From: Pyrinomonadaceae bacterium
Lineage (GTDB): Bacteria > Acidobacteriota > Blastocatellia > Pyrinomonadales > Pyrinomonadaceae
Direction: 5' to 3'
DNA: 64,000 nucleotides
NCBI GenBank assembly: GCA_035296385.1
Contig: DATHBB010000171.1
Location: 7,329-71,328, forward strand
In this document: piece by piece, positions 1,667 through 59,271 of the stretch
How positions within the stretch are numbered: position 1 is the stretch's first letter
Layout: every line of letters starts with the position of its first letter
Translations under genes and position numbers: made by a program
Notes under the pieces: model-generated
The model's input: only the letters and a program-made list of their open reading frames with translations
Told to the model about the DNA's origin: nothing
Database searches by the model: none

Positions 1667-2878
1667 ATGGCCGCAAACACTACTTCCACCAACCCGGTCG
1701 TGCAGGCCATCGCGGCGGGCACGGCTCCGCAGACGGCGCGCTTGATGGCGGCGCGCGGGCTGTTGCCGCTGGCCGAAGACGAACTGTTGGAAGTGTTGGT
1801 GACGCTCAGCGCCGACGAGAACCCGGAGATCGTCGCCGCCGCCGCCGAGACGCTCGACGCGCAACCCGGCGAGACGCTGCTGACCGTCGCTTCCGCCAGC
1901 GGGACTTCGCCCGCCGTGCTCTCTTATCTTGCCAGCCGCACCGGCGCGCCGAAGGAAGTGCATGAGGCCGTCACGCTGAATGCCGCCACGCCCGACGAGG
2001 CCATCACCCGATTAGCCTCCTCCACCTCGGACGGCTCGCTCCTCGAACTCATCTCCATCAACCAGCAGCGTCTCATCCGCACGCCCGGCATCATCGAGGC
2101 GTTGCTCTCAAACCCCGCGCGCACGAATGACGCGGAGCGGCGCGCGCAGGAAACGAAGCGCGAATTTTTCGAGAAGGAACGCGGCGCGCAGCAGGTGGCC
2201 GACGAGATGCGAGCGCGCGGGATGACGGCCGCCGCCGAGTTCGTCGAGGCGGCCGAGTCCATCGGCACGACTTCCGGCTTAACCTACGACGACGCGTGGC
2301 TGCTCGCGGAACACATCGAAGTCTCCGACGCGGACATTGACGATTCCTGGCTGCCGCTCGAAAGGATGGAGGAGTTCTTCACCGAGAGCGAGGAGCAGCG
2401 CACCGCCAACCTCGAACGCATCATCGCCGAGACACATGCAGAGGGCGGCGAAGTCGAACCCGAACGCATCTCGCTCATCCGGCGCGTGATGCTGATGAAC
2501 GTCAAAGATCGCGTCAAACTCGCGATGAAGGGCGACCGCGAGGCGCGCGGCATCCTCATACGCGATTCCAACAAGGTGGTCGCCACCGCCGTCATACACA
2601 ACCCGCGCATGACCGACAAGGAGGTGGAAAGCATCTCCGCCATGCGCACCGTCTCCGACGAAGTGCTGCGCCTCATCGCACAGAACCGCGCGTGGGCGCG
2701 CAACTATCCCGTCATCCACAACCTCGCGCGCAACCCGCGCACGCCCATCGCCACCGCCATCAACGTCCTGCTGCGGCTCCAAACCAAAGACCTGCAAAAC
2801 ATCTCTCAGAATCGCAACGTCTCCGAGGCCGTCCGCCGCCAGGCCCAACGCCTCGCCCAGACACGCAGCGGACGCTAA
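1667..2878 (+). CDS. Hypothetical alpha-helical repeat protein
   Basis: 403-codon ORF with coding-like composition and Ala/Leu/Glu-rich repeats. No family recognised. It ends 5 nt before hairpin element H1. Confidence 0.65.
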   Translation: MAANTTSTNPVVQAIAAGTAPQTARLMAARGLLPLAEDELLEVLVTLSADENPEIVAAAAETLDAQPGETLLTVASASGTSPAVLSYLASRTGAPKEVHEAVTLNAATPDEAITRLASSTSDGSLLELISINQQRLIRTPGIIEALLSNPARTNDAERRAQETKREFFEKERGAQQVADEMRARGMTAAAEFVEAAESIGTTSGLTYDDAWLLAEHIEVSDADIDDSWLPLERMEEFFTESEEQRTANLERIIAETHAEGGEVEPERISLIRRVMLMNVKDRVKLAMKGDREARGILIRDSNKVVATAVIHNPRMTDKEVESISAMRTVSDEVLRLIAQNRAWARNYPVIHNLARNPRTPIATAINVLLRLQTKDLQNISQNRNVSEAVRRQAQRLAQTRSGR

Positions 2879-2883
2879 AAAAC

Positions 2884-2968
2884 AGTGACAAGTGACAGGT
2901 GACAAGTGACAAGTTAAAGCAAAAGAATTTGTCTTTAACTTGTCACTTGTCACCTGTCACTCGTCACT
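2884..2968. repeat. Heptad-periodic palindromic element H1 (GTGACAR family)
   Basis: Left arm 2884..2919 is agtgacaagtgacaggtgacaagtgacaagttaaag. Right arm 2933..2968 is its reverse complement with 1 mismatch in 36. The loop is 13 nt (caaaagaatttgt). It lies between convergent genes and its last base overlaps the stop codon of the minus-strand gene. Confidence 0.95.
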
Positions 2969-3498
2969 TAAAAGATTTCAGAGCCTTTGCGCAGAACAGA
3001 CCACGCGACATCGGTGAGCGTGTGGCTGGCCGCGCCCCACCAGAGACCGGCGAGCGCGGCGAGCGCGGCGGCGCGCCCCGTGCCTTCCAGCCGCACGCCC
3101 GCCTCTACGGCGCGCCATGCGCCGAGGAGTTCGCCGAAATCGGGCGGCGCGCCCGCGACGACGAGAGCGCGCAGGTAGACGGCCGCGATTGTCACCAGCG
3201 ACAGCATGAAGGCGAAATAGACGACGCGGATAAGCGTGCCGAAGATGATGCCATGCGACCAGCGCGAACGGTGTCGGAACATCACCTTGTAAGGCCACCA
3301 GATGAAACGAAACACGCCCCAGCGCGTGTACTGGCGCGACTGTATATCGAGGTCAGGTCCGAACATCAGCCCGCCGAACAGCATCGCGCCCGTCGTCACC
3401 GACGCCAGCAGCAGACTCCCCGTCACGCCCCACGCGGCGACGAAAGTCGGCGCGGTGAGCAACAGCGTAATCGCGTCGTGTGTTTTTCCAGAAGGCAT
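2968..3498 (-). CDS. Membrane protein resembling DUF2227 (putative metal-binding protein)
   Basis: N-terminus MPSGKTHDAITL and the motif FGPDLDIQSRQYTRWG ... HRSRWSHG, with several hydrophobic helices, match my recollection of the DUF2227/COG2389 family. Confidence 0.65.
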   Translation of the reverse strand: MPSGKTHDAITLLLTAPTFVAAWGVTGSLLLASVTTGAMLFGGLMFGPDLDIQSRQYTRWGVFRFIWWPYKVMFRHRSRWSHGIIFGTLIRVVYFAFMLSLVTIAAVYLRALVVAGAPPDFGELLGAWRAVEAGVRLEGTGRAAALAALAGLWWGAASHTLTDVAWSVLRKGSEIF

Positions 3499-3504
3499 AA
3501 GAGC

Positions 3505-3586
3505 AGAGGTTAGAGGTCAGAGGTCAGAGGTCAGTTAAAGCAACTTCTGTCTTTTACTGACCTCTGACCTCTAACCTCTGACCTCT
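3505..3586. repeat. Heptad-periodic palindromic element H2 (AGAGGTY family)
   Basis: Arms are 3505..3540 (agaggttagaggtcagaggtcagaggtcagttaaag) and 3551..3586, about 33/36 complementary, with a 10-nt loop. It lies between divergently transcribed genes, 6 nt from the start codon at 3498. Confidence 0.9.
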
Positions 3587-3683
3587 AAGGTATAGCATGT
3601 GCGCGCGCGACGACGCAAAAACGGCCGTTTGCCAGTCGCGGCGAGGGCGCGCTACACTGTCGCGCCTCGTCGGGTGCTGGTTA

Positions 3684-4676
3684 ATGAGTAAACACGGAAA
3701 ATTTCAGACGACTTTAGAATACGCCGTCACGCGCGCCCTGCTCGGCGGCCTCGGACTGTTGCCGCGCCCGGCGGCGGTCGCCACGGGTCGCGCGGCCGGC
3801 AGGCTCGCGCACAAGTTCGCGGGCGGCCTGCGTCGCACCGGCCAAATCAACCTCAAACTCGCTTTCCCCGAAATGGACCAGCGCGAGCGCGCGAAGATGC
3901 TGCGCGCGTCTTTCGACAATCTGGGACGCTTGCTCGGCGAGTTCAGCCAGTTTCCGCGCGCGACCCCGGAGAGCTTGCGCAAGCTGGTCGAGTACGATCA
4001 GGTCGGTCTGAGGCATTTGCGCGAGGCCGAGGGACAGGGGCGCGGCGTCATCTTCCTGACGGCTCATCTGGGCGCGTGGGAGTTTCTCAGTTTCGCCTGG
4101 TCTGCGCTCGAATACCCGATCAGTTTTCTCGTGCGCCCGATAGACAATCCGCGCGTCGAGGAGTTCATAGAGGGCATCCGCACACGCTACGGCAACACGG
4201 CCATCAATAAGAAAATGGCCGCGCGCCAGGCGTTGCGCGTCCTGCGCGACGGCGGCACGCTCGGCATTCTGGCCGACCTCAACACGCACCCGAACGAAGG
4301 CGTCTTCGTCCCCTTCTTCGGCCACCTCGCCTGCACCACCTCCGGCGTCGCCACGCTCGCCCTGCGCACGGACGCGCTCGTCATCCCCACCTGCGCCGTG
4401 TGGGACAAAGAGCGCGGCCGTTTCTTCTTTCACGGCGACCCACCCGTCGAATTAGTCCGCACCGGCGACGACAAACGCGACATCGAGACAAACACGGCAA
4501 ACTTCGCCGCCGCCATCGAACGCATGATCCGCGCCTACCCGGAACAGTGGCTCTGGATTCACAAACGCTGGCGCACTCGCCCCGCCGGAGAGCCTGATTT
4601 CTATAGCCGCCGGGAACAGTTCGACACAAAAGAGCCACAACTGACCGCTCCTACCAGCCGCAACAGCTTCTCCTGA
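3684..4676 (+). CDS. Lipid A biosynthesis (Kdo2-lipid IVA) acyltransferase family protein, LpxL/HtrB-like
   Basis: Start chosen at ATG 3684 (MSKHGKFQTTLEYAV). Typical N-terminal helix. LKLAFPEMDQRERAKMLRASFDNLGRLLGEF and VIFLTAHLGAWEF (H-x4-E-type acyltransferase motif) are characteristic of the LpxL/HtrB family. Confidence 0.8.
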   Translation: MSKHGKFQTTLEYAVTRALLGGLGLLPRPAAVATGRAAGRLAHKFAGGLRRTGQINLKLAFPEMDQRERAKMLRASFDNLGRLLGEFSQFPRATPESLRKLVEYDQVGLRHLREAEGQGRGVIFLTAHLGAWEFLSFAWSALEYPISFLVRPIDNPRVEEFIEGIRTRYGNTAINKKMAARQALRVLRDGGTLGILADLNTHPNEGVFVPFFGHLACTTSGVATLALRTDALVIPTCAVWDKERGRFFFHGDPPVELVRTGDDKRDIETNTANFAAAIERMIRAYPEQWLWIHKRWRTRPAGEPDFYSRREQFDTKEPQLTAPTSRNSFS

Positions 4677-19283: not shown

Positions 19284-19620
19284 GCCTCTAGCTCTTCATG
19301 TTTGGAGCACACGCCGAAACGCATCGCCTCACAGGAGACTCAAAATCGGCTCCGCGCTCGCGTGTCGGGCGGGATTTTACGCCCGCCTGCGCGGCGCGTC
19401 TGCGCGCTGACGTACAGAATAAAAGTTCCGTTCGTTATATTTTCGCCAAACAGAATTCGTAAAAACGGTCAAACGATTGCGCGCAAGAATGCAGGGTGCT
19501 CGTCATTCTTGTAATTGTAACTTTGAACCGCACGCGCTCATCCGGCTGGCCGAAAGCCGGACGAACCGCAGGCGTGTGCGGTGAAATTCAACCAGGCGGC
19601 TTCACACAGGAGGAACTTCA

Positions 19621-20001
19621 ATGCGACGAATTTTGGCTCTTTTGAGCCTTGCGGCTCTGGCGACCTTCGGGGCGGCTTGCGCCGCCACCGACAACGCGAA
19701 CGTGGGTAATGCCAACAACACGAACGCCGGAAACCTGAACGCCACCAGCGGCACGACCAACGGAAACACGGGCGGCACGACCGGCGCAACGACCGGAACC
19801 GGCGCGACCGGCACGACCGCCGCGCCCGACAATCTGAACACCGGCAACGCGAACTCCGGCAACACTAATAACGCGAACTCCGGTAATACGAATCGGGGTA
19901 ACGCGAACAACACCAACGCGGGCAACGGTAACGCCAACAGCGGCACGATGCGCGGCGGCAACACGAACACGGGCACGGGCGCAAACCGCAACACCCCGTA
20001 G
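19621..20001 (+). CDS. Low-complexity Asn/Thr/Gly-rich putative lipoprotein
   Basis: Strong RBS (caggaggaacttcaATG). Signal peptide with a lipobox-like LATFGAAC. The rest is N/T/G/A repeats (GNANNTNAGN, GNANSGNTNNANSGNTN). Followed by element H4. Confidence 0.6.
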   Translation: MRRILALLSLAALATFGAACAATDNANVGNANNTNAGNLNATSGTTNGNTGGTTGATTGTGATGTTAAPDNLNTGNANSGNTNNANSGNTNRGNANNTNAGNGNANSGTMRGGNTNTGTGANRNTP

Positions 20002-20031
20002 TTTCGCCCGAACGACTCCGCGAGTCTAAAT

Positions 20032-20112
20032 AACGATGAAGTGGGAACGCGGAACGATGAACTGAAAGCAAGTGTCTTTCAGTTCATCGTTCCGCGTTCC
20101 TACTTCATCGTT
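20032..20112. repeat. Heptad-periodic palindromic element H4 (AACGATG/GGAACGC family)
   Basis: 37-nt arms (20032..20068 and 20076..20112) are complementary except for one G-T pair. The loop is 7 nt (caagtgt). It lies between convergent genes. Confidence 0.95.
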
Positions 20113-20168
20113 TTGCTTTGCGTCTCTGCGGTGCAAGGTTTCGCTTAAACCCAAACGCACGCGGGCGC

Positions 20169-22505
20169 TTATGCTTTACCGAAGAAGCGAAAGGTGAGTC
20201 CCGCCGTCACGCCGCGCGGGTAGCCGGGCGTTCCGTGAATGCGTGGGACGGCGGCGTCGTTCGGTCTGAGCCGCGACTCGAAATAGTTCTGCGTCTCGAA
20301 GTAGCGTTTGTCGGTCAAATTGTCTATCGAGAAATTGAAGTCAACCCAGCGCCGTAGGCGTTTCGTCAAACTGAAATCGATCACGTCGAGGCCGGAGGCG
20401 CGCAAGGCCGCGTCGTCCGGGTCGAGCCGGTAGTTGCCCGTGTGACGGTAGCCGAGCGAGGCGCTCAGGCCGCGATAGCCGGAGAGGATGAGCGCGGCGT
20501 TCGCGACCGTGTGCGGCGCGCCGTCAACATATGAGCGCGGGCGCGTGCCGCGAAAGAAGGCGTTGCTAACCTGAGTCAATCCGCCGTTGAAAGACAGGTG
20601 CTTCGTCAGCCGCGCCGAAGTCTTGAACTCGAAGCCGTAAGAACGGCTCGCGCCGGTGAACTCGAAACTGCCGTCGTCCGGGACATAAATTTGTTCGTTC
20701 GAGCGGTCGATGAGAAAGATGTCCGTGACGAGCGAAAAGCGTCTGAAGTTGTGCGACGTGCCGAGCTGGTAGAAATTCGTCGTCGCAACTTTCGGCGCTG
20801 TCGGCTGGCCTACGACGCCGCGCGCGTCCTGGCTCGAAATGCCGCGCCCGTAGTTGAAATAGAAGACGGCGGGGAACTTGTCCGAAGGCGCGTAAGACGC
20901 GCTGAACTTCGGCTGGAAGCGCGCGGCGTGCTCCGTGCCCGAACCCTTGGGCGAGACTCTGTCGTCCACGTCGAAGCGAAAATAGTCGAAGCGCAGACCG
21001 GCCTCGACGTGCAGGTGACCGTGCAGAAAGTCCACGCCGTTTTGCGCGTAGCCGCTCGCGTTCGTGACGCGCACGCGCGCATCGGTCAGGAGCCGCGTCG
21101 TGACGTTCGGGCTGATCTCCGCGCCGACCGTGATGGGGTTGCGCCCGACCGTCGGGTAGAGTCCCACGTTGATCTGGTTGTCGTGGTAATTTGCGCCGAG
21201 TGTGACGAGCGCGGGGTTGTTGAAGAATTTGTAAGGGCGCAAATATTGGACGTTAGCGCCTTCCTGCAAGCGCGAGTCGTGCTGTTGAATCTCGTCGCCG
21301 TTCACTTCGTCCGCGAGGAAGAAGGTGAAGTTTGAATAAAGGTCGAAGAGTGAGCGAGAGACGAAAGCGTCGGCCTTGAAGGTCGCGCCCGAGGCCGACT
21401 CGTTGCGGAAATAGAGGCCGATTGTGCCGCTCTGGACGCGACCGCCGCTGTCCGGGTCGAGCGCGCCGAAGCGATCCAGACGCCCCGCCGCCACTTCGTC
21501 GAGCGGAATCTGGCCGGAGGAGAAAAAGTTGTTTCGCGCCGCGTTCAGTTTGACGCCTGCGGCGCGCTTGTCGCTCAAGCGGCGCGTGTAGTTCAACGTC
21601 AGGTTGTCGCGGCGGTAGCGCAGAGGGTTTTGGAAAGGGCCGTCGGTGCGCGACGCTTCGTAGGCGACGAAGGCGTCGGCGCGTTCGAGTCGCGGGCTGT
21701 AGGCGAGAAAGGTGCGGAAGGTGTCGAACGAGCCGCCTTGCAGCCGGAGGGTGAGCGTGTCGGGCAGAGACTCGCGCAGGCGTATGTGGACGACACCGAG
21801 ACCGGAGAAGTCGCCGTACTGCGCGTTGAAAGGACCGTTCAGGATGTCAACGTCCTGCACGAGTTCGGGCGTCAGGCTCTTCAGGCCGCCGAGATAGCCT
21901 TGCCCGTGCCCCTGCGTCGCCTGATTCTGCTGCACGTCGTTGACGAGAACTTTGAGGCCGCCGCCCACGCCGCCGTGATCGAGGTTAAAACCGAAGCGGC
22001 GTATTTCGAGCGACTTGCCGCCGCCTTCGTGTTGTCCGGCGTTGATTCCGGCGCTCAAGGTCTGGAAGAGTTGATCGTCTCTGAGAAACAGTGTGTTGTT
22101 GAAGACGGCGTCGTTGCGCCGGTCGAGCACAGGGTCGAGCGCGGTCGCTTCGATGCGTACGCTTTCGTGAACGGGCGGGATGACGTAAGCGACACGGACG
22201 GAGAGATTTTCGCTCGACTCGTCGGGGTTGATGGTTTTAGAGACGAGCGCGAGATTCTTTCCGAAGAACCTGAGCGACAGAGTTTCGGCGGGCACAACGG
22301 CGCGAAAGTTTCCTTCGGCGTCGCTCTCGATTCGCTGCTCGCCCGAAGCGTAGCGGACGAGTATGGAGACGCCCGCGACCCGTTCGTTCTGCTGCGTGAT
22401 AATCGTGCCGGAGAGCGTGCGCGCCGTCGGCTGCGTCTGCTGCGCCGCAATTGCGGCGGGCAGAGAAAGTATGACTAAAAGAATAAAGGGCGCAAGTTTT
22501 TGCAT
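20169..22505 (-). CDS. TonB-dependent receptor with N-terminal CarboxypepD_reg-like domain
   Basis: Signal peptide MQKLAPFILLVILSLPAAIAAQ, a CarboxypepD_reg-like segment (LSGTIITQQNERVAGVSILV ... DAEGNFRAVVP), then plug-like and beta-barrel-like composition over 778 aa. Confidence 0.85.
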   Translation of the reverse strand: MQKLAPFILLVILSLPAAIAAQQTQPTARTLSGTIITQQNERVAGVSILVRYASGEQRIESDAEGNFRAVVPAETLSLRFFGKNLALVSKTINPDESSENLSVRVAYVIPPVHESVRIEATALDPVLDRRNDAVFNNTLFLRDDQLFQTLSAGINAGQHEGGGKSLEIRRFGFNLDHGGVGGGLKVLVNDVQQNQATQGHGQGYLGGLKSLTPELVQDVDILNGPFNAQYGDFSGLGVVHIRLRESLPDTLTLRLQGGSFDTFRTFLAYSPRLERADAFVAYEASRTDGPFQNPLRYRRDNLTLNYTRRLSDKRAAGVKLNAARNNFFSSGQIPLDEVAAGRLDRFGALDPDSGGRVQSGTIGLYFRNESASGATFKADAFVSRSLFDLYSNFTFFLADEVNGDEIQQHDSRLQEGANVQYLRPYKFFNNPALVTLGANYHDNQINVGLYPTVGRNPITVGAEISPNVTTRLLTDARVRVTNASGYAQNGVDFLHGHLHVEAGLRFDYFRFDVDDRVSPKGSGTEHAARFQPKFSASYAPSDKFPAVFYFNYGRGISSQDARGVVGQPTAPKVATTNFYQLGTSHNFRRFSLVTDIFLIDRSNEQIYVPDDGSFEFTGASRSYGFEFKTSARLTKHLSFNGGLTQVSNAFFRGTRPRSYVDGAPHTVANAALILSGYRGLSASLGYRHTGNYRLDPDDAALRASGLDVIDFSLTKRLRRWVDFNFSIDNLTDKRYFETQNYFESRLRPNDAAVPRIHGTPGYPRGVTAGLTFRFFGKA

Positions 22506-22528
22506 GGCGGCTATTGTACACTGAGGAC

Positions 22529-23653
22529 ATGACGGACAAAGAGCAGTTCACAATCGGGGTCGAGGAAGAATACCAGATCGTTGATCGGGAGACGCGCGAG
22601 TTGCGCCCGCGCGCCCTGCGTATCCTGCCGGAGGCGCAAGAGGCTGTGGGCGAGAGCGTCACGCCGGAACTCTACCTCTCGCAGATCGAGATCGGCACAA
22701 ATATCTGCGCGACGCTCGGAGAGGTGCGCGACGAACTCACGCACCTGCGCCGCGAAGTCATCTCCGCCGCCGAATCCGACGGCCACTGGATCGCTGCGGC
22801 GGGCACGCATCCCTTTTCTCACTGGGCGGATCAAGAGTTGACGCCCAAGCGTCGTTATCGCGGCATCGCGGATGAGTACGAACAACTGGCGCGCGAGCAG
22901 TTGATCTTCGGCTGCCACGTCCACATCGGCATGCGCGACCGCGAGGCGGCGATTCATGTGATGAACCGCGCGCGACTGTGGCTCGCGCCGCTTCTGGCGC
23001 TCGCCGCCAACTCGCCCTACTGGCTCGGCTGGGATACGGGCTACGCCAGTTTCCGCACCGAAATCTGGCGGCGCTGGCCGATGTCCGGCACGCCGCAAGT
23101 CTTTCGCTCGCGCGAAGAATACGACGCGCTCGTCGCAACTCTGGTCGAAACCGGAAGCGTGTCGGACGGGACGAAAATCTACTGGGACGTGCGCCCCTCG
23201 GCGCGCTACGAAACGCTCGAATATCGCGTCACGGACGTGTGCCTGACGATTGACGAAGCCGTCATGATCGCCGGACTCGTGCGCGCGCTCACGCGCACCG
23301 CCTACGCACACTACATGCGCGGCGAACCGCTCACCGAAGTGCGCCCCGAACTGCTCCGCGCAGCCAAGTGGCGAGCGGCGCGCTACGGCCTCGACGCAGA
23401 ACTGGTAGATGCGCGCGACGGCTGCGCGCGCCCCGCCGCCGAACTCATCGAAAAGCTGCTCGCGCACCTGCGCCCCGCGCTCGAAGAGGACGGCAACTGG
23501 GATGAAGTCGCCGCGCTCACGCGCTACACGCTGGCGCGCGGCAACGGGGCGGCGCGACAGCGTCAGGTCTTCACGCGCACCGAGAGCTACGAGGCCATCG
23601 TCGATCTCATCGTCAGCGAAACGGCCAAAGGCACGGAGCGTGCGTCGTCGTAA
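22529..23653 (+). CDS. Carboxylate-amine ligase, YbdK/GCS2 family
   Basis: FTIGVEEEYQIVD and FGCHVHIGM are family hallmarks. The start is either ATG 22529 or TTG 22514, only 8-23 nt from the divergent receptor start codon. Confidence 0.9.
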   Translation: MTDKEQFTIGVEEEYQIVDRETRELRPRALRILPEAQEAVGESVTPELYLSQIEIGTNICATLGEVRDELTHLRREVISAAESDGHWIAAAGTHPFSHWADQELTPKRRYRGIADEYEQLAREQLIFGCHVHIGMRDREAAIHVMNRARLWLAPLLALAANSPYWLGWDTGYASFRTEIWRRWPMSGTPQVFRSREEYDALVATLVETGSVSDGTKIYWDVRPSARYETLEYRVTDVCLTIDEAVMIAGLVRALTRTAYAHYMRGEPLTEVRPELLRAAKWRAARYGLDAELVDARDGCARPAAELIEKLLAHLRPALEEDGNWDEVAALTRYTLARGNGAARQRQVFTRTESYEAIVDLIVSETAKGTERASS

Positions 23654-23741
23654 AGGGGCGCAGGCCATCGTAAAATTGAAGGGAGATGTTACCTGCGCGT
23701 CGCCGGTAAGCGCGTGAGCGAATCGTTAAGGAAGCCGCGTG

Positions 23742-24152
23742 ATGGACGAGCGAAAGAGGCGTCTGAAGAAAGAGTACCTGCAACAGCGCAGGGCGATGGG
23801 CGTCTTCCTCATACGCAATACGGTCAACGACAAGGTGCTCGTCGGCGTCGGTCTCGATCTTTCAGGCATCATCAACAGCCACAAGTTCCAACTGGCGGCG
23901 GGCGTTCACCGCAACCGGCGTCTGCAAAGCGATTGGAACGCGCTCGGCGGCGCGAACTTCACCTTCGAGATTCTCGATCAACTCGAACCGCGCGCGGACG
24001 CCGAAGACGACGGGCGACAGGATTTGGCGTTTCTCGAAGAACTCTGGCTGGAGAAGTTGCAACCGTTCGGCACGCGCGGCTACAACAAACGCAAGCTGAC
24101 GAGAGAAGAGATGCTGCGGCGAATCGCAGCCGGACAGTCGCCCAAACACTGA
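23742..24152 (+). CDS. GIY-YIG domain protein
   Basis: AAGGAAG RBS 7 nt before ATG 23742. GVFLIRNTVNDKVLVGVGLDLSGIINSHKFQLAAGVHRNRRLQSDW ... FTFEILD follows the GIY-(10-11 aa)-YIG ... R ... H ... N ... E layout of small GIY-YIG proteins. Confidence 0.7.
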   Translation: MDERKRRLKKEYLQQRRAMGVFLIRNTVNDKVLVGVGLDLSGIINSHKFQLAAGVHRNRRLQSDWNALGGANFTFEILDQLEPRADAEDDGRQDLAFLEELWLEKLQPFGTRGYNKRKLTREEMLRRIAAGQSPKH

Positions 24153-24221
24153 CGCTCGAATTACGCGGAAAATTTCGTTCCGGCCTGGGCAGATTTTACC
24201 AGCCCCGTCTCAACCAGCCGG

Positions 24222-24251
24222 TTGAGACGCCTGAGAGCGGTGCGGTATAGT
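24222..24251 (+). promoter_or_regulatory. Sigma70-like promoter upstream of the tRNA-Ser locus (TTGAGA, 18-nt spacer, TATAGT)
   Basis: TTGAGA at 24222..24227 and TATAGT at 24246..24251, about 15 nt before the tRNA-like 5' fragment. Confidence 0.5.
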
Positions 24252-24266
24252 GTGTGAGCAAATTAG

Positions 24267-24302
24267 GGAGGCTTGGGCTAATTGGTAAGTCAGCAGTCTT
24301 GA
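24267..24302 (+). pseudogene. 5' half of a disrupted tRNA-Ser(UGA) gene (acceptor strand through anticodon)
   Basis: GGAGGCT TG GGC TAATTGGTAA GTC A GCAGT CTTGA is 29/36 identical to the intact tRNA-Ser 424 bp downstream. The D-loop and the C-U-UGA part of the anticodon loop are identical. Similarity stops exactly after anticodon base 36. Confidence 0.8.
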
Positions 24303-24334
24303 GTCCCGTTGTCTCTGTCGCTATATTATTTTCT

Positions 24335-24700
24335 ATGAGAATTACTCAAAGAAAAGGTGACATAGCAACTGCTCAGGCCATAGCAACCTTTACACGTTTG
24401 GGCTACGATGTGTCCATTCCGATAACGGAATCTGCTAAATATGACTTAATCGTTGATACGCCCGATGGACTCAGACGGGTACAGGTTAAATATAGCAGTG
24501 ATCGGAAAGTGGGTTTAAGAAACATCCACTCAAACGCGAGCGGGTATGTGGTGAAAAAATGTGAGCCGAACGCTTACGATTGGCTCTATATCCTCTATGC
24601 GGCGCAAACTGGATTTGAGGAATATCTGTTACCCGAATGTTTTGCGGGTCGAAACTCTGTAAGTCTCACCCCATATTCCAGGATTCTGATGGAAGGGTAG
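24335..24700 (+). CDS. PD-(D/E)XK endonuclease, I-Ssp6803I-like (homing-endonuclease-type)
   Basis: ATG 24335 gives MRITQRKGDIATAQAIATFTRLGYDVSIPITESAKYDLIVDTPDGLRRVQVKYS. This is the KG-(x)-AE ... G ... V ... P ... YDLI ... RVQVK pattern of the small PD-(D/E)XK family that includes the tRNA-intron homing endonuclease I-Ssp6803I. The ORF is visibly AT-rich relative to the flanks, and its stop codon lies inside the tRNA. Confidence 0.7.
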   Translation: MRITQRKGDIATAQAIATFTRLGYDVSIPITESAKYDLIVDTPDGLRRVQVKYSSDRKVGLRNIHSNASGYVVKKCEPNAYDWLYILYAAQTGFEEYLLPECFAGRNSVSLTPYSRILMEG

Positions 24701-24776
24701 CCTAATTGGTAAGGCAGTAGTCTTGAAAACTACCGCACGAAAGTGCTTGCAGGTTCGAGTCCTGTCCCTTCCGCCA
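24691..24776 (+). tRNA. tRNA-Ser (anticodon UGA), CCA encoded
   Basis: Manual cloverleaf. Acceptor GGAAGGG / CCCTTCC. 3-bp D stem GCC/GGC with loop TAATTGGTAA. Anticodon stem GTAGT/ACTAC with loop CTTGAAA. Long variable arm GCAC-GAAA-GTGC. T arm GCAGG-TTCGAGT-CCTGT. Discriminator G, then CCA. Confidence 0.9.
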
Positions 24777-24803
24777 TTTTGAATTTAAGGTTCGGAGACG
24801 CAT

Positions 24804-24829
24804 GACGGGTTCGAGTCCCTCAGCCTCCG
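24804..24829 (+). pseudogene. 3' end (T arm plus acceptor strand) of the disrupted tRNA-Ser gene
   Basis: GACGGG TTCGAGT CCCTC AGCCTCC G. The AGCCTCC strand is the exact complement of GGAGGCT at 24267..24273, not of the intact tRNA acceptor. The T stem has an extra C. No anticodon-stem 3' strand is present. Confidence 0.7.
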
Positions 24830-24850
24830 TTTGATTTGAGACGCACGCTT

Positions 24851-24886
24851 GAGCCGCCCCCGCTTGCCGCAGAGCATGGGCGGCTC
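24851..24886 (+). terminator. Hairpin, possible terminator of the tRNA transcription unit
   Basis: gagccgccc / gggcggctc: 9-bp stem, 18-nt loop, followed by a T-containing tract (gttcagttt). Confidence 0.4.
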
Positions 24887-24932
24887 GTTCAGTTTGCGGT
24901 TGGCGTGTGATGATAAGGAGTGAGGACGGATC

Positions 24933-26078
24933 ATGCTCGAATTTTTGACGTGTGAAACGGTGGCGGGCGCGGCGCGTGCGGCACTCTCGTCGGGGCAGAC
25001 GCTCGCGGCGAATCTCTGGCTGTGGCAGGCGCAAGCAGCGCCGACGCCTACCCCGCAAGCCGCTCTGCAAACAACACCCACGCCGATCACGCCCGCCGCA
25101 CCGCCTCCACCGGAGAGCAACGTCAACTGGGCGATCCGTTTCTGGAACAACTACCTCAACCAGAAACTTGAGATCGGCGACACGCTCAAAATCTCCGTCG
25201 CCTCGCTCATCCTCGGCGTGCTCATTCTGCTCGCCGCGTGGGTCTTGTCGCGCACGCTTCGCAGGTTGCTCGAAGGGCGTCTGGCCGCGCGCACACATCT
25301 CGATCCGGGTTTACAGTTCACGCTGCTCAGGCTCACGCATTACGTGATTCTGACGGTCGGCATCATTCTCGCCGCGAGCGTCGGGTTGAACGCGAATTTC
25401 ACTTCAGTCGCCGTCATCTTCACCGCGCTCTCGGTCGGCATCGGCTTCGGCTTGCAGTTCATCGCGGGCGACATCGCCTCCGGCTTCATACTGCTCTTCG
25501 AACGCCCCGCGCGCATCGGCGACTGGGTCACGATCACGGGGCCGGACAGCAAGCTCACCGAAGGCCGCGTGCAGGCGATCAACCTGCGCACGACATCCGT
25601 GCTGACCAACGACCGCATCACCGTCATCGTCCCGAACTCGAAACTCGTCAACGACAACCTCGTCAACTGGTCTTACGCAGACCGACGCTCGCGCATCAGT
25701 GTGCCCGTCGGGGTCTCCTATAACGCGGACGTTGATCTCGTCACGGACACGCTCTTGCGCGCCGCCGAAGGGATCACGCACGTCTTGCCCGAACCGAAGC
25801 CGAACGTGCAGTTCCTCGGCTTCGGCGAATCGTCGCTCGACTTTCGCCTGCTCGTCTGGACGGACAGGCCGCGCCGCCACCCGCAGATCAAAAGCGACAT
25901 TAACTACCGCATCTGGCGTCTCTTCAAAGAGGCCGGAATCGAAATCCCCTTCCCGCAGCGCGATCTCAACCTGCGCGGCGCGTCGCTTCGCCTGGACACG
26001 CCCGGCGGCCAACATCTCAGGCTCTCCGGCGCGGACGAAGAGGACGAAGAGCGCGAAGAAAATCTGACGCGAAGATAA
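24933..26078 (+). CDS. Mechanosensitive ion channel family protein (MscS-like)
   Basis: AAGGAG RBS. Transmembrane helices, then the MscS beta-domain RIGDWVTITGPDSKLTEGRVQAINLRTTSVLTNDRITVIVPNSKLVNDNLVNWS. Confidence 0.85.
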   Translation: MLEFLTCETVAGAARAALSSGQTLAANLWLWQAQAAPTPTPQAALQTTPTPITPAAPPPPESNVNWAIRFWNNYLNQKLEIGDTLKISVASLILGVLILLAAWVLSRTLRRLLEGRLAARTHLDPGLQFTLLRLTHYVILTVGIILAASVGLNANFTSVAVIFTALSVGIGFGLQFIAGDIASGFILLFERPARIGDWVTITGPDSKLTEGRVQAINLRTTSVLTNDRITVIVPNSKLVNDNLVNWSYADRRSRISVPVGVSYNADVDLVTDTLLRAAEGITHVLPEPKPNVQFLGFGESSLDFRLLVWTDRPRRHPQIKSDINYRIWRLFKEAGIEIPFPQRDLNLRGASLRLDTPGGQHLRLSGADEEDEEREENLTRR

Positions 26079-26085
26079 AACTTTC

Positions 26086-26228
26086 GGGGAAAGGGGAAGG
26101 GGGAAGGGATAAAGGTAAAGACAGGAAGCAGGAATTGACTCGCGCCGCTATAATTGTCTTACTCTGATTCTTTACCCTTTCCCCCTTCCCTTTTCCCTTT
26201 CCCCCTACTCATTACCCTTACCCTTTTT
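26086..26228. repeat. Heptad-periodic palindromic element H5 (GGGGAAR/GGTAAAG family)
   Basis: The left arm ggggaaa ggggaag ggggaag ggataaa ggtaaag (26086..26120) faces C/T-rich complementary repeats at 26171..26228. The central segment is about 50 nt. Pairing is imperfect. Confidence 0.8.
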
Positions 26229-26317
26229 TGCACACTTCTGCTAGGCTGTTATCGTTTCTATGAATGAACTGCCACTCAGTAAAGCGTTCGACTAAAAGAG
26301 ACGGAGTTGTCCCCCGA

Positions 26318-26938
26318 ATGCGTTCCGCACGTTCCCTGAATCCGAGCCAGCGCGCCGCCGTGCCCGATAAGCGCGAAGCCATCTTGCGCGCCGCCACCAA
26401 AGTCTTCGCCACGAACGGCTACTTCAACTCGAAGGTGGCCGACGTGGCGCGCGTCGCGGGCGTCGCCGACGGCACGGTCTATCTCTACTTCAAGAGCAAA
26501 GAGGAAATCCTGCGTTCGATCTTCGAGCGCGGCGTGAATGATGCCGTCACGGACGCGCGCGCCGAGGTCGCCTCGCTCACGGACGCGCGCGAGAAGTTGC
26601 GCCGCATCGCGCGCCTGCATCTCGAACGGCTCGGCGCGGATCGCGATCTGGCCGTCGTCTTTCAAGTCGAACTGCGCGGCTCGACGAAGTTCATGGAAGA
26701 GTTTTCCGCAGCCGGTCTCGCCGAGTACCTGCGGCTCATCCGTGAGACGCTGGAAGAGGGGCAGCGCGCCGGACTCTTTCGCGCGGAACTGAACGCGAAA
26801 GTCGTCGCCAAGATTCTCTTCGGCGCGCTCGACGAGATGGCGACCAACTGGATTCTCTCGCCGCGCGCCTACAAGCTCGCGCCGCTGGCCGATCAAGTGC
26901 TCGACATTTTTCTGAACGGAGTAAGCACCAGCAGATGA
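26318..26938 (+). CDS. TetR/AcrR family transcriptional regulator
   Basis: HTH region ILRAATKVFATNGYFNSKVADVARVAGVADGTVYLYFKSKEEIL. The stop overlaps the next start (ATGA). Confidence 0.85.
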   Translation: MRSARSLNPSQRAAVPDKREAILRAATKVFATNGYFNSKVADVARVAGVADGTVYLYFKSKEEILRSIFERGVNDAVTDARAEVASLTDAREKLRRIARLHLERLGADRDLAVVFQVELRGSTKFMEEFSAAGLAEYLRLIRETLEEGQRAGLFRAELNAKVVAKILFGALDEMATNWILSPRAYKLAPLADQVLDIFLNGVSTSR

Positions 26939-28902
26939 CCGCAGACCCCAAGACGAACAGCGCGAACACGACGGAGACGGACGCCGCAAACGCGACCGCC
27001 GCAGCAGCAACAACAGCGGCGGGAGGCGAAGCGACTACCGCCGCGACGGGCGCGGAAGATTTCATACACATCCCGCTGCCCACGCGCGTCCCGCTCTCCG
27101 CGGACGAACCTCAGACGCTCGCGGAAGTTTTCGAGCGCGCCGTCACGCGTCACCCCAAGCGCGACGCGCTCAACTACAAGCGCGACGGCGTGTGGCGCTC
27201 GATCTCCTCCGCCGAATTGCTCGAACGCGCGCAACTCATCGCCTACGGACTCTACGCGCTCGGCCTCCGGCGCGGTGAACGCGCGGCCATTCTCTCCGAG
27301 AGTTCGCCCGAATGGACGCTCACGGACGCGGGCTGCCAGTTCGCAGGCGTCGTTGATGTTCCCATCTACCCGACGCAAGCGCCGCCGCAGGTGCGCTACA
27401 TCCTCGACGATTCGGGCGCGCGCGTGCTCTTCGTGCGCAACCGCGACTCATTCCAGCGCATCTTCGAGGCCATCGACGGCGCGCCCGCGCTCGAACACCT
27501 CGTTTTCTTCGAGCCGGAGGGCGCGGAAGAGACCGGCGCGACGACGCTCGAAGCGTTGATCGAACGCGGGCGCGCGCTGCGCGACGAACAACCCGATTTA
27601 ATCAACGAACTCGCGCACGCCGCCAAACCGGAAGACCTCGCGACGATCATCTACACTTCCGGCACGACGGGCGAGCCGAAAGGCGTCATGCTCACGCACT
27701 CGAACCTCGTCACGAATCTGATCGACAGTTCCGGCCATCTCGCCTTCAGCGAGACAGACGTGGCGCTCTCCGTGCTCCCGCTCTCGCACGTCCTCGAACG
27801 TCTCGGCATGTACATGTACATTTATCACGGGATGAGCGTCTTCTACGCGGAGTCAATCGAGAAGATCGGCGAGAACATACGCGAGGTGCGCCCGACCGTC
27901 ATGCTCTGCGTGCCGCGTCTCTTCGAGAAGATTTACGCGCGCATACAGGAGAAGGCCACCGCCGCCGGAAAACTCCAGGCCGGAATACTCGCCTGGGCGG
28001 TCGGCGTCGGGAAACTCTGGGCGCAAACCGTGGTCGCGCGCAAGCCCGTCCCGCCGCTCTTGCAGTTGAAGCACAATCTCGCCACGCGTCTCGTCTTCTC
28101 GAAGTGGCGTGCGGGCTTGGGCGGGCGTATGCGCCTGTTCGTCTCGGGCGGCGCGGCGCTGCCCGAAGAGATCGGCTACATCTTCATGGGCGCGGGCGTG
28201 CCCATCGTGCAGGGCTACGGGCTGACTGAAACTTCGCCCGTCATCGCCGCCGGGACGCTGGAAGACAACCGCATCGGCACGGTGGGGCGACCGATCAAAA
28301 ACGTCGAAGTGCGCATCGCGCCCGACGGGGAGATCGAGACGCGCGGGCCGAACATCATGCGCGGCTATTACAAGAAGCCCGCCGAGACGCGCGCCGTTTT
28401 CACGGACGACGGCTGGTTCAAGACGGGCGACATCGGCTTGATTGACGCGGACGGCTTCCTGAAGATCACGGACCGCAAGAAGGAGCTTTTCAAAACGTCG
28501 GGCGGCAAGTACATCGCGCCCTCCGTCATCGAGACGCGCATCAAGAGCTCGCGCTTCGTCAATCAAGTCGTGCTCGTAGGCCACGGGCGCAAGTACCCGG
28601 CGGCGCTCATCGTCCCCGACTGGGAACAACTCCGCGCCTACGCGCAACACAAAGGCATACGCGACGGCGTCGGGACGCCCGCAGAGATGTGCCGCCACCC
28701 GCGCCTGCTCGATCTCGTGCAGCGACAGGTTGAGGCCTCGTGCGCCGACCTCTCGCAGTACGAACGCGTCAAGCGCATCGCGCTGTTGGAGCGCGAACTC
28801 TCCATCGAAGGCGGCGAACTCACGCCCACGCTCAAGGTCAAACGCCGCGTCGTTGACGAAAAATATCGCGACGTGATCAACCGCCTTTACGCGAACAGTT
28901 AA
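26935..28902 (+). CDS. Long-chain fatty acid--CoA ligase (AMP-forming)
   Basis: AMP-binding motifs IIYTSGTTGEPKGVMLTHSN, GYGLTETS and FKTGDIG. N-terminal low-complexity Ala/Thr extension. Confidence 0.9.
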   Translation: MTADPKTNSANTTETDAANATAAAATTAAGGEATTAATGAEDFIHIPLPTRVPLSADEPQTLAEVFERAVTRHPKRDALNYKRDGVWRSISSAELLERAQLIAYGLYALGLRRGERAAILSESSPEWTLTDAGCQFAGVVDVPIYPTQAPPQVRYILDDSGARVLFVRNRDSFQRIFEAIDGAPALEHLVFFEPEGAEETGATTLEALIERGRALRDEQPDLINELAHAAKPEDLATIIYTSGTTGEPKGVMLTHSNLVTNLIDSSGHLAFSETDVALSVLPLSHVLERLGMYMYIYHGMSVFYAESIEKIGENIREVRPTVMLCVPRLFEKIYARIQEKATAAGKLQAGILAWAVGVGKLWAQTVVARKPVPPLLQLKHNLATRLVFSKWRAGLGGRMRLFVSGGAALPEEIGYIFMGAGVPIVQGYGLTETSPVIAAGTLEDNRIGTVGRPIKNVEVRIAPDGEIETRGPNIMRGYYKKPAETRAVFTDDGWFKTGDIGLIDADGFLKITDRKKELFKTSGGKYIAPSVIETRIKSSRFVNQVVLVGHGRKYPAALIVPDWEQLRAYAQHKGIRDGVGTPAEMCRHPRLLDLVQRQVEASCADLSQYERVKRIALLERELSIEGGELTPTLKVKRRVVDEKYRDVINRLYANS

Positions 28903-28965
28903 AACCTGAAACCTACGCGCGGCGAGCATCGTTAGATAACTTTCCGCTTGTAGCGGCAGAAGAGA

Positions 28966-29144
28966 TTCACCGCAGAGGCGCAGAGCAAAGCCGCAAGAGG
29001 CGTCGCAGAGGAAAACGATGAAGTAGGAACGCGGAACGATGAAGTAAAAGCAACTGTCTTTAGTTCATCGTTCCGCGTTCCTACTTCATCATTTGTTTTC
29101 TCTGCGCCCGTCTCTGCGGCTTTGCTCTGCGCCTCTGCGGTGAA
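28966..29144. repeat. Palindromic element H6-outer (TTCACCGC ... GCGGTGAA family) carrying a nested element
   Basis: ttcaccgcagaggcgcagagcaaagccgcaagaggcgtcgcagagg ... cctctgcg ... ctctgcgcctctgcggtgaa. The termini are shared with the elements at 43605 and 49477. Confidence 0.9.
29014..29092. repeat. Palindromic element H6-inner (AACGATG/GGAACGC family), nested in the centre of H6-outer
   Basis: About 75/81 positions are identical to H4 at 20032..20112 by hand alignment, and it has the same loop core aaagcaa-N-tgtcttt. Confidence 0.9.
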
Positions 29145-29186
29145 TGCTTTTAGTCGTAGTTAATTTTAATCGAACAACAAACGGCC

Positions 29187-30578
29187 ATGAGTCTTAAGAA
29201 CATCATCACTTTACTGCGCGAGGCCGTCGGCGGCTCGGAGCAGGATTTCACGAAAGGCAGCATCAACCGCGCCATCGTGCTGCTCTCCGTGCCGATGATC
29301 CTGGAGATGATGATGGAGTCGCTGTTCGGCGTCGTCAACATCCTCTACGTCGCGCGGCTCGGCGCGGAATCAATCGCCACCGTCGGCCTGACCGAGTCCA
29401 TGCTCACGATCATCTTCGGCATCGCGATGGGACTCAGCATGGCGACGACGGCGACGGTCGCGCGGCGCACCGGCGAGGGCGACACGGAAGGCGCGGCGGT
29501 CGCCGCAGTTCAAGCCATCATGCTCGGCGTGCTCACGTCGCTGCCCGTGGCCGTCGTGGGCGTCGTGTACGCGCCCGCGCTCCTGCGGGTGATGGGGGCG
29601 GAGGCGGGCGTCGTCGCGAGCGGCTCTACTTACGCGGCGATCATACTCGGCGGCAACGTCTGCATCATGCTGCTGTTTCTCATCAACGCGATCTTTCGCG
29701 GCGCGGGCGACGCGGCGGTGGCGATGCGCTCGCTCTGGATCGCCAACCTCGTCAACATCGCGCTCGACCCCTGCCTCATCTTCGGACTCGGCCCCTTCCC
29801 CGAACTCGGCGTCACCGGCTCGGCCATCGCCACGACCATCGGGCGCTCAACGGGCGTCGTCTATCAACTCTGGATTCTGCTCGGCGGGCGCAGCCGCGTC
29901 AAAGTTACGCGCGCGCACCTGCGGCTCGATCCGGCTGTGATGATGAGACTGCTGCGGATTTCTCTGGGCGGGATGTTTCAATATCTCGTGGCGACGGCGA
30001 GTTGGCTGGGGCTGACGCGCATCGTCGCCATCTTCGGAAGCGAAGCTCTGGCGGGCTACACGCTCTCGCTCCGCATCATCATCTTCGCGCTCCTGCCTTC
30101 GTGGGGCATGGCGAACGTGGCGGCCACGCTCGTCGGGCAGAATCTCGGCGCAGGCCAGCCGGAGCGCGCGGAGCGTTCGGTGTGGCGGGCGGGATTGAGC
30201 AACATGATCTTTCTCGGCGCGGTCGCGCTCGTCTTCGTCGTCTTCGCCGAACGCATCATCGGCCTCTTCACGGGAGACGCGGGCGTCGTCGCCTACGGCG
30301 TCTCAAGCCTGCGCCTCTTGAGCTACGGCTACATTTTCTACGCCTACGGCATGGTGATGGTGCAGGCGTTCAACGGAGCGGGCGACACCTTCACGCCGAC
30401 CATGATCAACCTCGGCTGCTACTGGCTCTTCCAAATCCCGCTCGCCTACGCCCTCGCCATCCCTTTCGATCTGGGCGCAACAGGCGTCTTCGCGGCGATT
30501 CCCGTTAGCGAATCGCTGCTCACCATCGTCGCCGTAATCTTCTTCCGGCGCGGGCGTTGGAAGACGCAGGAAGTTTAA
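29187..30578 (+). CDS. MATE family efflux transporter
   Basis: 463 aa with about 12 predicted helices. Typical MATE N-terminus ([29 protein letters not shown]) and an internal repeat. Confidence 0.9.
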
Positions 30579-30701
30579 GTTGTCCGTGGTCAGTAGTCAG
30601 TTGTCCGTTGCATGTGGCTCTCACATGCGTGGCTAAAGATTGAATTGATCAACTGACGACAGACAAAGAACAACTGACAACGGACTACGGACAACTGACG
30701 G
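30579..30701. repeat. Heptad-periodic palindromic element H7 (CAGTTGTCCGT family)
   Basis: gttgtcc gtggtca gtagtca gttgtcc gttg ... caactgacaacggactacggacaactgacgg. Imperfect. The central part carries its own small hairpin (catgtg ... cacatg). It lies between convergent genes. Confidence 0.85.
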
Positions 30702-52975: not shown

Positions 52976-53052
52976 AGTGACAAGTGACGAGTGACAAGTT
53001 AAAGACAGGTGCTTTGCTTTAACTTGTCACTCGTCACTTGCCACTTGTCACT
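52976..53052. repeat. Heptad-periodic palindromic element H11 (GTGACAR family, loop core inverted)
   Basis: agtgacaagtgacgagtgacaagttaaag ... ctttaacttgtcactcgtcacttgccacttgtcact. The stop codon of the minus-strand gene (53048..53050) lies inside the right arm. Confidence 0.9.
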
Positions 53053-58789: not shown

Positions 58790-58804
58790 ATAATCTCCCT
58801 AAGA

Positions 58805-58892
58805 CAGTGACAAGTGACGAGTGACAGGTGACAAGTTAAAACAAAAGAACTTGTCTACCGTCTCGTCACCTGTCACTCGTCACTTGTCACTG
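58805..58892. repeat. Heptad-periodic palindromic element H13 (GTGACAR family)
   Basis: cagtgacaagtgacgagtgacaggtgacaagttaaaac ... gtctaccgtctcgtcacctgtcactcgtcacttgtcactg. It lies between same-strand genes of the dehydrogenase cluster. Confidence 0.9.
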
Positions 58893-59165
58893 TTTTTCTG
58901 CCGTCGTCGGATCGATGATCGTTCTGATCTCGGAAATGCGGTTCGCCGGAAAGCCGCCCTGCGACGCGTGCTCGCGCACCATCTCCTCGTTCGGCGCGAT
59001 ATAGACGCAATAGATTTTGTCGTCCGTCACGTAACTCTGCACCCACTGAATCTGCGGTCCCAGATCGTTCAGGACGCCGCAAGACTTCTGCGAGATGGCC
59101 TGCAACGCGTCGCCCGTCAACTTCCCCGCCTCCGGAAATTCTCGCTCAATAACATACTTCGGCAT
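58887..59165 (-). CDS. DUF4242-like small protein
   Basis: MPKYVIEREFPEAGKLTGDALQAISQKSCGVLNDLGPQIQWVQSYVTDDKIYCVYIAPNEEMVREHA matches my recollection of DUF4242. Its last codons overlap the right arm of H13. Confidence 0.7.
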   Translation of the reverse strand: MPKYVIEREFPEAGKLTGDALQAISQKSCGVLNDLGPQIQWVQSYVTDDKIYCVYIAPNEEMVREHASQGGFPANRISEIRTIIDPTTAEKQ

Positions 59166-59182: not shown

Positions 59183-59271
59183 CAGAATTCAGAACTCAGA
59201 ATACAGAAGCCGGAATAAAGACAAGAGTGAGGTTTTTAATTCTGACTCCTGTGTTCTGAATTCTGACTTCT
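59183..59271. repeat. Heptad-periodic palindromic element H14 (CAGAATT family)
   Basis: cagaatt cagaact cagaata cagaagc cggaata aag ... tttttaattctgactcctgtgttctgaattctgacttct. Imperfect. Confidence 0.85.

Follow-up and report, generated by a model that had tools for sequence, protein, structure and literature searches.

Why do hairpins with unrelated arms close on one and the same short, asymmetric sequence? The question is raised by hairpin H1, located at positions 2884 to 2968 of a 64,000-nucleotide stretch of DNA (in the following, the window) from the Pyrinomonadaceae bacterium assembly GCA_035296385.1 (contig DATHBB010000171.1, positions 7,329 to 71,328 of the forward strand). The contig, C171, belongs to a 4.63-Mb assembly (G000) of 317 contigs with 61.6% G+C. 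A preliminary description of the window, made from the letters alone, had pointed out that several hairpins share the half-sites AAAGCAA and TGTCTTT at their apices, in both orientations, and had proposed a common origin, a protein-binding site or an RNA loop motif. Here, the elements are described as selfish, intervening-sequence (IVS)-like repeats, and the shared apex (the core) is a real, lineage-wide module.

A bulged core at the hairpin apices

The pattern AAAGCAA-N(0-12)-TGTCTTT was found five times in the window and not once in 100 dinucleotide shuffles. In the G000 genome, 34 exact copies with 1 to 9 nucleotides between the half-sites were identified, 15 on the plus and 19 on the minus strand. 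The genome scan, which had been suggested beforehand, places 34 of the 34 exact copies at hairpin apices, flanked by long complementary arms. Half-sites combined asymmetrically, in either of the two ways, occur 34 times in the genome, and the two perfectly palindromic combinations 5 times. The window holds five elements with an exact core and two with a decayed one:

H1, 2884..2968: hairpin with GTGACAR heptamer arms, convergent genes on either side; core AAAGCAA-AAGAAT-TTGTCTTT at 2916-2936 (+)
H2, 3505..3586: hairpin with AGAGGTY arms, divergent genes on either side; core AAAGCAA-CTTC-TGTCTTT at 3537-3554 (+)
H4, 20032..20112: hairpin of the AACGATG/AACGCGG/AAGTAGG family, convergent genes; core AAAGCAA-G-TGTCTTT at 20065-20079 (+)
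H6-inner, 29013..29094: AACGATG-family hairpin nested in the apex of a GCAGAG-type outer hairpin (28966-29144); core AAAGCAA-C-TGTCTTT at 29047-29061 (+)
H11, 52976..53045: GTGACAR hairpin; reverse-orientation core AAAGACA-GGTGCT-TTGCTTT at 53001-53020 (-)
GTGACAR hairpin, 58801..58896: decayed core AAAACAA-AAGAACT-TGTCTAC at 58838-58858
H14, 59183..59265: CAGAATW arms; half-decayed reverse-orientation core AAAGACA-AGAGTGAGG-TTTTT at 59217-59237

The five exact apices and the degenerate string of H14 had been reported before and were located without discrepancy. The arms are indeed unrelated, since they fall into separate heptamer families (GTGACAR, AACGATG/AACGCGG/AAGTAGG and AGAGGTY). The stems of the window elements are 29-41 bp long with fold z-scores of -10 to -18. 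Folded as DNA, H1 has one bulged T and reaches -41.8 kcal/mol (z = -13). The left half AAAACAA of the decayed core is the commonest left-half variant in the GTGACAR family.

When the top strand is folded, AAAG pairs with CTTT, one T is bulged out and CAA(A) pairs with (T)TTG. The bottom strand is the mirror image with a bulged A. Given this fold of the single strands, the asymmetric loop described previously is a bulge of a single base beside the loop. The innermost part of the hairpin stem is formed by the 14 conserved bases, and the length and sequence of the loop are free. Loop length is family-specific, with 1-2 nt in the AACGATG, 6 nt in the GTGACAR and 4 nt in the AGAGGTY family, and in another genus the loop comprises 1-11 unrelated bases. 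Because the spacing is variable (1-11 nt), the core is no fixed duplex-DNA site for a dimer; its recognition, if there is any, takes place in the hairpin form. An IHF site, an integron attC site and a dimer-binding operator were ruled out on spacing and order by reading the sequence. With respect to attC, whose R''/R' boxes (RYYYAAC...GTTRRRY) lie at the base of the stem, GTTAAAG/CTTTAAC was found in reverse order, at the apex, and in one arm family only. The double changes are too few for covariation to decide whether pairing follows the bulge register or is in register, and core variants are mostly unpaired. AAAGCGA..CGTCTTT (2 copies) is the only compensatory variant in the bulge register.

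Using a custom hairpin scan with a score of at least 15, 1206 hairpins were detected in the genome; shuffled sequence gave 1 per megabase, which corresponds to about 5 expected by chance. The arms are 7-periodic in 535 of the 864 longest hairpins. At least 90% of all heptamer arrays are paired, as in the inverted pairs of heptamer simple sequence repeats (SSRs) of Xanthomonas and Nostoc. The most enriched apex hexamers were AAAGCA and TGTCTT (140 and 135 of 707 short-loop hairpins, respectively). Loose matching across the genome (1 mismatch per half) yielded only the ~200 matches expected by chance, and matching was therefore restricted to apices. Among the 791 hairpins with loops of up to 40 nt, a centred core was exact in 34 and deviated by one base in 52 and by two bases in 71, so that about a fifth (~157) carry the core at two mismatches or fewer. 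The expectation that the motif marks hairpin apices in particular is confirmed by the exact copies. As a property of the elements in general it fails, since around 80% of the ~800-1200 hairpins have no core.

The core is frequent in the AACGATG, GTGACAR and AGAGGTY families and weaker in AAGGGR. The large GTCAGTT/GTCCGTT families do not have it and carry a different asymmetric apex of 40 nt. Hairpins of this kind (~150 copies in the family) are located in the window at 30578-30696 and 62026-62138, and their apex (CATGTGGYTATCACRCGAGTTGCTAAAGAC..) also occurs in both orientations.

All 19 genomes of the genus contain the exact pattern, as do two further genera of the family, represented by G020 (13 copies) and G023 (6 copies). 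The reversed pattern, which served as control, gave 0-1 matches. In three other genera of the same family and in other families of the class the core did not exceed the control, and matches outside the family proved not to be hairpins when their flanks were fetched. Beneath the core, G020 has the arm families AACGCTG/AAGTCAG, GTTCAAA and GGAGTCN, and G023 has GGGATGA, GATTGCG, GAGTCYG and AGTAGNC. Altogether, the same core is present on at least ten unrelated arm families across three genera of one acidobacterial family, and loop length is kept per family. The core is thus a module independent of the arms. This spread is the strongest support for the central point of the preliminary description and supports the common origin proposed there. 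Compared to that account, the observation is broader in range and weaker in coverage, with four of five hairpins having no core. The core looks more like a mark of shared ancestry than a working signal.

Genomic setting and cassettes with S23p genes

For the analysis of genomic context, gene calls were our own rough estimate (3627 genes, 86% coding). In total, 97% of the hairpins are intergenic. Convergent spacers are enriched (25% of hairpins versus 14% of spacers), whereas divergent spacers are depleted (5.6% versus 14.5%). The hairpins occupy terminator-like slots downstream of genes, with fast turnover between congeners. Their position fits that of terminators. Their stems, however, are long without being GC-rich, and only some copies have T tracts.

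The spacer of H1 contains a heptamer hairpin in every congener, with GTGACAR, GTRAGCA, GTGAATC or GGTGAAT arms. The same turnover was observed over a wider range in 80 metagenome loci encoding the H1-neighbouring protein. In G006, G009 and G001 a GTGAATC hairpin is nested within the GTGACAR apex, and in G012 the inner hairpin alone is left. The syntenic site of H4 is occupied by ordinary GC-rich intrinsic terminators in G006, G019 and G001, and by a GCAGAG-type hairpin with the apex AAAGACATTATTCTT in G003. The 779-aa gene beside H4 (20168-22505) is absent from the syntenic stretch in G014 and G018, where matches to query 19400-29700 skip from query position ~600 to ~3050. At the H6 site, 16 congeners carry an inner hairpin with related CGATGAA arms and another apex (GGCAACTCG..GAGTGCC). 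The outermost arm unit alone is common to G000 and these congeners, and the interior in G000 looks as if it had been replaced by a standard AACGATG-plus-core copy.

Nested hairpins sit between the AAAG.. and the ..CTTT of the outer apex. The borders of the outer arms are A-rich and read AAARCA-arm or AAAGCY-arm. They were considered as a split copy of the asymmetric core, which was rejected since symmetric and mixed pairs occur, the numbers being small.

H2 (3496-3596) is located 6 nt from the start codon of a minus-strand gene for a 176-aa membrane protein and 10 nt from a plus-strand acyltransferase gene, and the hairpin is present in every congener. Its arms are runs of Shine-Dalgarno-like GAGG and anti-Shine-Dalgarno-like CCTC, and therefore an effect on translation or promoter use may be possible.

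Two hairpins with 400-nt loops pointed to small open reading frames (ORFs), and a scan for orphan arrays revealed the real gene-carrying cassettes. Long-range inverted repeats were rejected as such, being mostly two neighbouring hairpins around an ordinary gene. The cassettes encode PF05635 (23S_rRNA_IVP, in the following S23p), a four-helix-bundle protein. All four S23p genes of G000 are located in loops of heptamer-armed hairpins:

C180:19745-20059, S23p gene
C120:17207-17524, S23p gene
C86:6913-7224, S23p gene
C98:1505-1819, S23p gene

These hairpins represent four families (GTGACAGG, AGAGGTY, AAGGGR and GTCMGTT). In congeners, 36 of 37 short S23p genes lie within heptamer hairpins, and so do most of those in four other genera. 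Altogether, S23p genes are enclosed by arms of more than 20 families, including the CAGAATW arms of the H14 family in congeners (loci L189-L194). Longer PF05635-like proteins (180-210 aa; L200-L203 in G008, G014, G011 and G010) are encoded outside hairpins, and their genes are preceded by direct heptamer repeats (TTCAGAT TTGAAAT CTCAGAT..).

Core halves were identified at the junctions of several cassettes. The GTGACRA cassette of G011 reads arm-CAGATAAAAGCAAGCGG..gene..GCGTCTT-arm with AAAAGCAAG as left half, and variants of it are present in G003 and G004. AGAGGTY cassettes have arm-AAAAGCAGG or AAGCAAG on the left, followed by the gene and TGCGTTCACT-arm. The right junction of a G015 cassette (L185) is TGTCTTT-TA-arm, and a G023 cassette (L224) reads AAAGCAG..gene..TTGCTTT. 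Many cassettes have no core halves. AAAGCAA is coding in the GTGACRA cassettes and part of the 5′ untranslated region in the AGAGGTY cassettes; the motif therefore tracks the inner stem end and not the gene. In the GTGACRA cassettes of congeners, a likely GTG start codon is located within the last arm unit.

Since nearly all S23p genes of this lineage lie between arms of the same kinds, the hairpins can be regarded as gene-less miniatures of IVS-type cassettes. The stem of the Coxiella burnetii IVS is 28 bp long and includes a single mismatch and a single bulge; the element contains an S23p ORF and is excised by RNase III (Warrier et al., 2016, PMC4990558). Tandem heptamers (GACAGAT) with variable copy number are contained in this stem (PMC4990558). 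The elements described here share with 23S rRNA IVS the long terminal-inverted-repeat stem around a loop that may hold an S23p gene. They share with the Coxiella IVS the heptamer arms, nearly every S23p gene being found within a heptamer-armed hairpin. Unlike IVS, all copies lie between protein-coding genes, in intergenic terminator slots and not in helix 25/45 of the 23S rRNA. Furthermore, they number ~1200 per genome and are almost all gene-less, as are the five exact-core elements of the window. No conserved bulged apical core common to several arm families is known from IVS elements. The 23S rRNA, which was looked for to find a true IVS, is not contained in the G000 assembly. The best reading of the hairpins is that of IVS-type elements located outside rRNA and mostly gene-less, with the core as innermost helix and the loop as cargo slot.

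Orientation, flipping and decay of the core

The preliminary description had assigned each element a polarity and had suggested a comparison of apex orientation with flanking genes and with replication. Neither relation was found. In tandem spacers the core points with transcription in 52 cases and against it in 47. On the closed 5-Mb chromosome of G020, with the origin placed at dnaA, the two orientations were counted at 9:8 and 5:5 on the two replichores. In G000, core orientation is likewise unrelated to local GC skew and gene-strand bias. Arm mismatches of the G·T and A·C type amount to 80:70 on the core strand and 257:290 on the transcribed strand, so that there is no G·T excess on either. 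In view of the missing relation to transcription and of these mismatch ratios, the proposed RNA loop motif is unlikely in a strand-specific sense.

The lack of an orientation bias is explained by apices that flip at homologous loci, as observed for H1 and H2. A second copy of window positions 2200-4200 is present in G000 on contig C193 (19894-21889). It is 85% identical, includes both hairpins and stems either from a duplication or from a second strain that was binned with G000. In the H1 copy on C193, arms and flanks are the same and the apex is the reverse complement of that in the window. H2 is orthologous in 18 of 18 congeners examined, and its apex retains the spacer CTTC. Its orientation is plus in 8 genomes as well as on contig C193 and flipped in ~7. 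Since the orientation of H2 differs between G019 and G001, which have a derived duplication in common, at least two flips have taken place. The polarity is thus real in each copy but unstable, and an apex that is inverted between homologous loci is no lasting orientation mark. Inversion via the two arms would be the obvious mechanism of flipping.

Asymmetric tips that exist in two reverse-complement forms on an unchanged stem are known from the flip/flop terminal hairpins of parvoviruses and from spacer inversion between inverted repeats. Unlike in parvoviruses, the flips described here lie between species at chromosomal loci, and nothing points to rolling-hairpin replication.

The core decays together with the arms. 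The mean arm mismatch rises from 8% at an exact core to 37% at three core changes (Spearman 0.45, p = 1e-12), and the trend holds within families. As core decay tracks arm decay, intact cores are a trait of young copies. The H2 core on C193 is decayed to TAATCGG..TGTTTTT with the arms kept, and the left half of H2 is mostly AAATCAG across congeners. The apex of H1 also varies among species with the same arm family. The evolution of the core at single loci looks neutral, and the evidence points away from selection on the locus.

Explanations and relation to known repeats

The explanation we favour, with roughly an even chance of being correct, is that the core is a shared apical module of IVS-type heptamer hairpins which spreads with the elements, flips via the arms and decays neutrally. 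The core would be carried along when whole elements are copied or converted; that it travels with whole elements is suggested by the loop length specific to each arm family. It could be passed between arm families via nesting or via exchange at the loop, which would act as a slot for nested hairpins or an S23p gene. After copying, the core would decay roughly as fast as the arms. The two arms may recombine or serve for template switching and in this way turn the core over, which would result in both orientations, unrelated to genes or replication. If the core is only a mark of descent in this way, palindromes of this kind lose the polarity of their apex through inversion, and a functional reading of that polarity should be avoided.

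Several points weigh against this explanation. The 14 bases are exact across all the arm families and the three genera named above, with unrelated loops, and descent alone explains this poorly unless intact cores are needed for spread. An exchange event between arm families was not caught directly. Core halves at cassette junctions are limited to the GTGACRA, AGAGGTY, AATGATG and GTGATGA families, and the GTGACAGG cassette of G000 has none. No AACGATG-armed cassette was found, although the AACGATG family holds most of the exact cores. The test for co-decay is partly confounded, as weaker matches may include unrelated hairpins. Finally, the gene calls and the dnaA origin are rough estimates.

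It is possible, with a chance clearly below even, that the core is a recognition or cutting site which, in the folded single strand, is used by a trans-acting copying factor. Only intact bulged cores would then proliferate and subsequently decay freely. The factor could be a nuclease or recombinase, or an S23p/Avd-like pentamer, which copies hairpins into hairpin loops or terminator slots. Half-sites that are exact around unrelated loops of 1-11 nt fit the recognition of a stem-loop better than that of duplex DNA, and the asymmetric form is strongly preferred to perfect palindromes. New hairpins are inserted exactly within the core, near-perfect young hairpins keep intact cores, and the occupation of the H4 and H6 sites specific to G000 indicates recent spread. 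However, no candidate enzyme was found, the Y1 transposase being unassociated with the core and a reverse transcriptase being absent from G000. Neither a target-site duplication nor a clean empty site was seen at the sites compared. Around 80% of the hairpins, including whole large families, are without the core and equally abundant, and S23p genes are also present in genera without the core. Retro-mobility was rejected, as no RVT_1 domain was found in G000.

In its most specific form, this alternative would make the bulged core the folded-strand site of a transposase-less copying system for IVS-type hairpins, possibly operated by an S23p/Avd-like pentamer, which inserts hairpins and cassettes into existing loops and terminators. 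We consider this rather improbable. Recognition of the core by a copying factor is what would make the finding important. If the specific form were true, IVS would be an active class of mobile elements and S23p would gain a function. The core is a short, easily assayed mark at the exact insertion point of new hairpins and genes. It provides a bait for binding and cleavage assays and a marker for the spread, flipping and decay of the elements.

More doubtful is the idea that an S23p insert was deleted internally, comparable to a miniature inverted-repeat transposable element (MITE), and that its two different ends were left joined as the core halves, whereby the asymmetry and the polarity would reflect the 5′ and 3′ ends of the lost gene. 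The junctions of the GTGACRA cassettes in G011, G003 and G004 and of the AGAGGTY cassettes can be read in this sense. In the GTCAGTT family, the 40-nt apex is similar to the two ends of the C98 cassette, as if it had arisen via internal deletion. The position of AAAGCAA argues against this idea, since it is coding in one cassette type, 5′ untranslated in the other and follows the arm boundary. In addition, a G023 cassette (L213) has almost the whole core on one side of the gene, L224 has a symmetric pair, and most cassettes show no core halves. With regard to MITE traits, the arms are inverted, the compared sites showed no target-site duplication, and the gene-bearing relatives carry S23p and not a transposase.

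It is very unlikely that the core is a functional RNA loop motif of read-in transcripts, such as a terminator loop, a site for an RNase or RNA-binding protein, or a regulatory element. The location of the hairpins downstream of genes, with the enrichment in convergent and depletion in divergent spacers, would agree with such a role, as would the replacement of ordinary intrinsic terminators at one syntenic site. By analogy to IVS elements, the long perfect stems would be RNase III substrates (PMC4990558). Against this stand the random orientation relative to transcription, the absence of any excess of G·U over A·C, whether on the transcribed or on the core strand, the flipping of orthologous apices without a change of context and the uncompensated core variants. 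No Rfam match exceeded the threshold; in the window a tRNA alone passes, and the hairpins score below threshold to generic miRNA-precursor models. These counterpoints concern a strand-specific role of the core and not terminator action of the hairpins.

An extrahelical base in a hairpin resembles the recognition sites of IS200/IS605 elements and of repetitive extragenic palindromic (REP) sequences. Mobilisation as REP/REPIN elements by RAYT, a Y1 transposase recognising the bulged hairpin, is largely refuted and retains next to no probability. Extragenic palindromes with an extrahelical base and one Y1_Tnp gene are present in G000, but this gene is flanked by different short GC-rich hairpins and not by heptamer ones. 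Y1_Tnp was not found in the core-bearing genomes G001, G002, G003, G006, G009, G011 and G012, of which G003 has 9 exact cores at 93% completeness, whereas it is common in families without the core. There is also no GTAG/CGTC tag at the arm borders, which read as given above, and no replication-strand bias. The elements are similar to REP/REPIN-RAYT systems (Bertels and Rainey, 2011, PMC3116915) in being abundant extragenic palindromes at gene ends that form families of near-identical copies, and in that the hairpin, not the duplex, is likely the active form. They differ in the missing RAYT association, in the missing conserved 5′ tetranucleotide, and in arms built of tandem heptamers instead of a fixed palindrome of 20-30 nt. 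The sole Y1_Tnp gene of G000 (IS200/RAYT-like; L013, C42:6493-6822) and its flanking GC-rich hairpins GTCCCGTGAGGGAC, GTCCCTACGGGAC and GCCCCTGACGGGGC seem to form a REP/RAYT-type system of their own, with no relation to the heptamer hairpins.

Heptamer SSRs in convergent inverted pairs were described for Xanthomonas (GGGAATC) and for Nostoc as short tandemly repeated repetitive (STRR) sequences (Rehm et al., 2015, PMC4692102), and TAACTGA repeats for Beggiatoaceae (PMC4679880). The arms found here are similar in consisting of tandem 7-nt units that are intergenic, often head to head and different between related genomes. Unlike the present analysis, these accounts cover the arms only, with a G-quadruplex or translational reading, and neither PMC4692102 nor PMC4679880 reports a shared asymmetric centre, nesting or a link to S23p cassettes. 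What this study adds is a core found throughout the lineage, together with its bulge, its flipping and the fact that it decays along with the arms. Heptamer-repeat hairpins (STRR, Xanthomonas, acidobacterial) and S23p-bearing rRNA IVS have each been unexplained for decades and are seen here as one system. Like the core, the small dispersed repeats (SDR) of Nostoc are reportedly short conserved units of ~20-27 nt, nested in repeat-rich, hairpin-forming contexts in both orientations.

One-sided arrays (CTTGAAA/CCTGAAA)n were observed within GTGACAR apices beside TGTCTTT, where the partner arm is absent (C249:5665, C17:17179; L022 in G003). Arrays may therefore arise in place in the loop. The GCAGAG-type hairpins of the window (28966-29144, 43605-43700 and 49477-49575) are not 7-periodic and have other apices (AGAAGAAGTTAATCTTTTCT; ACAAGATCATTCAACTCTCT).

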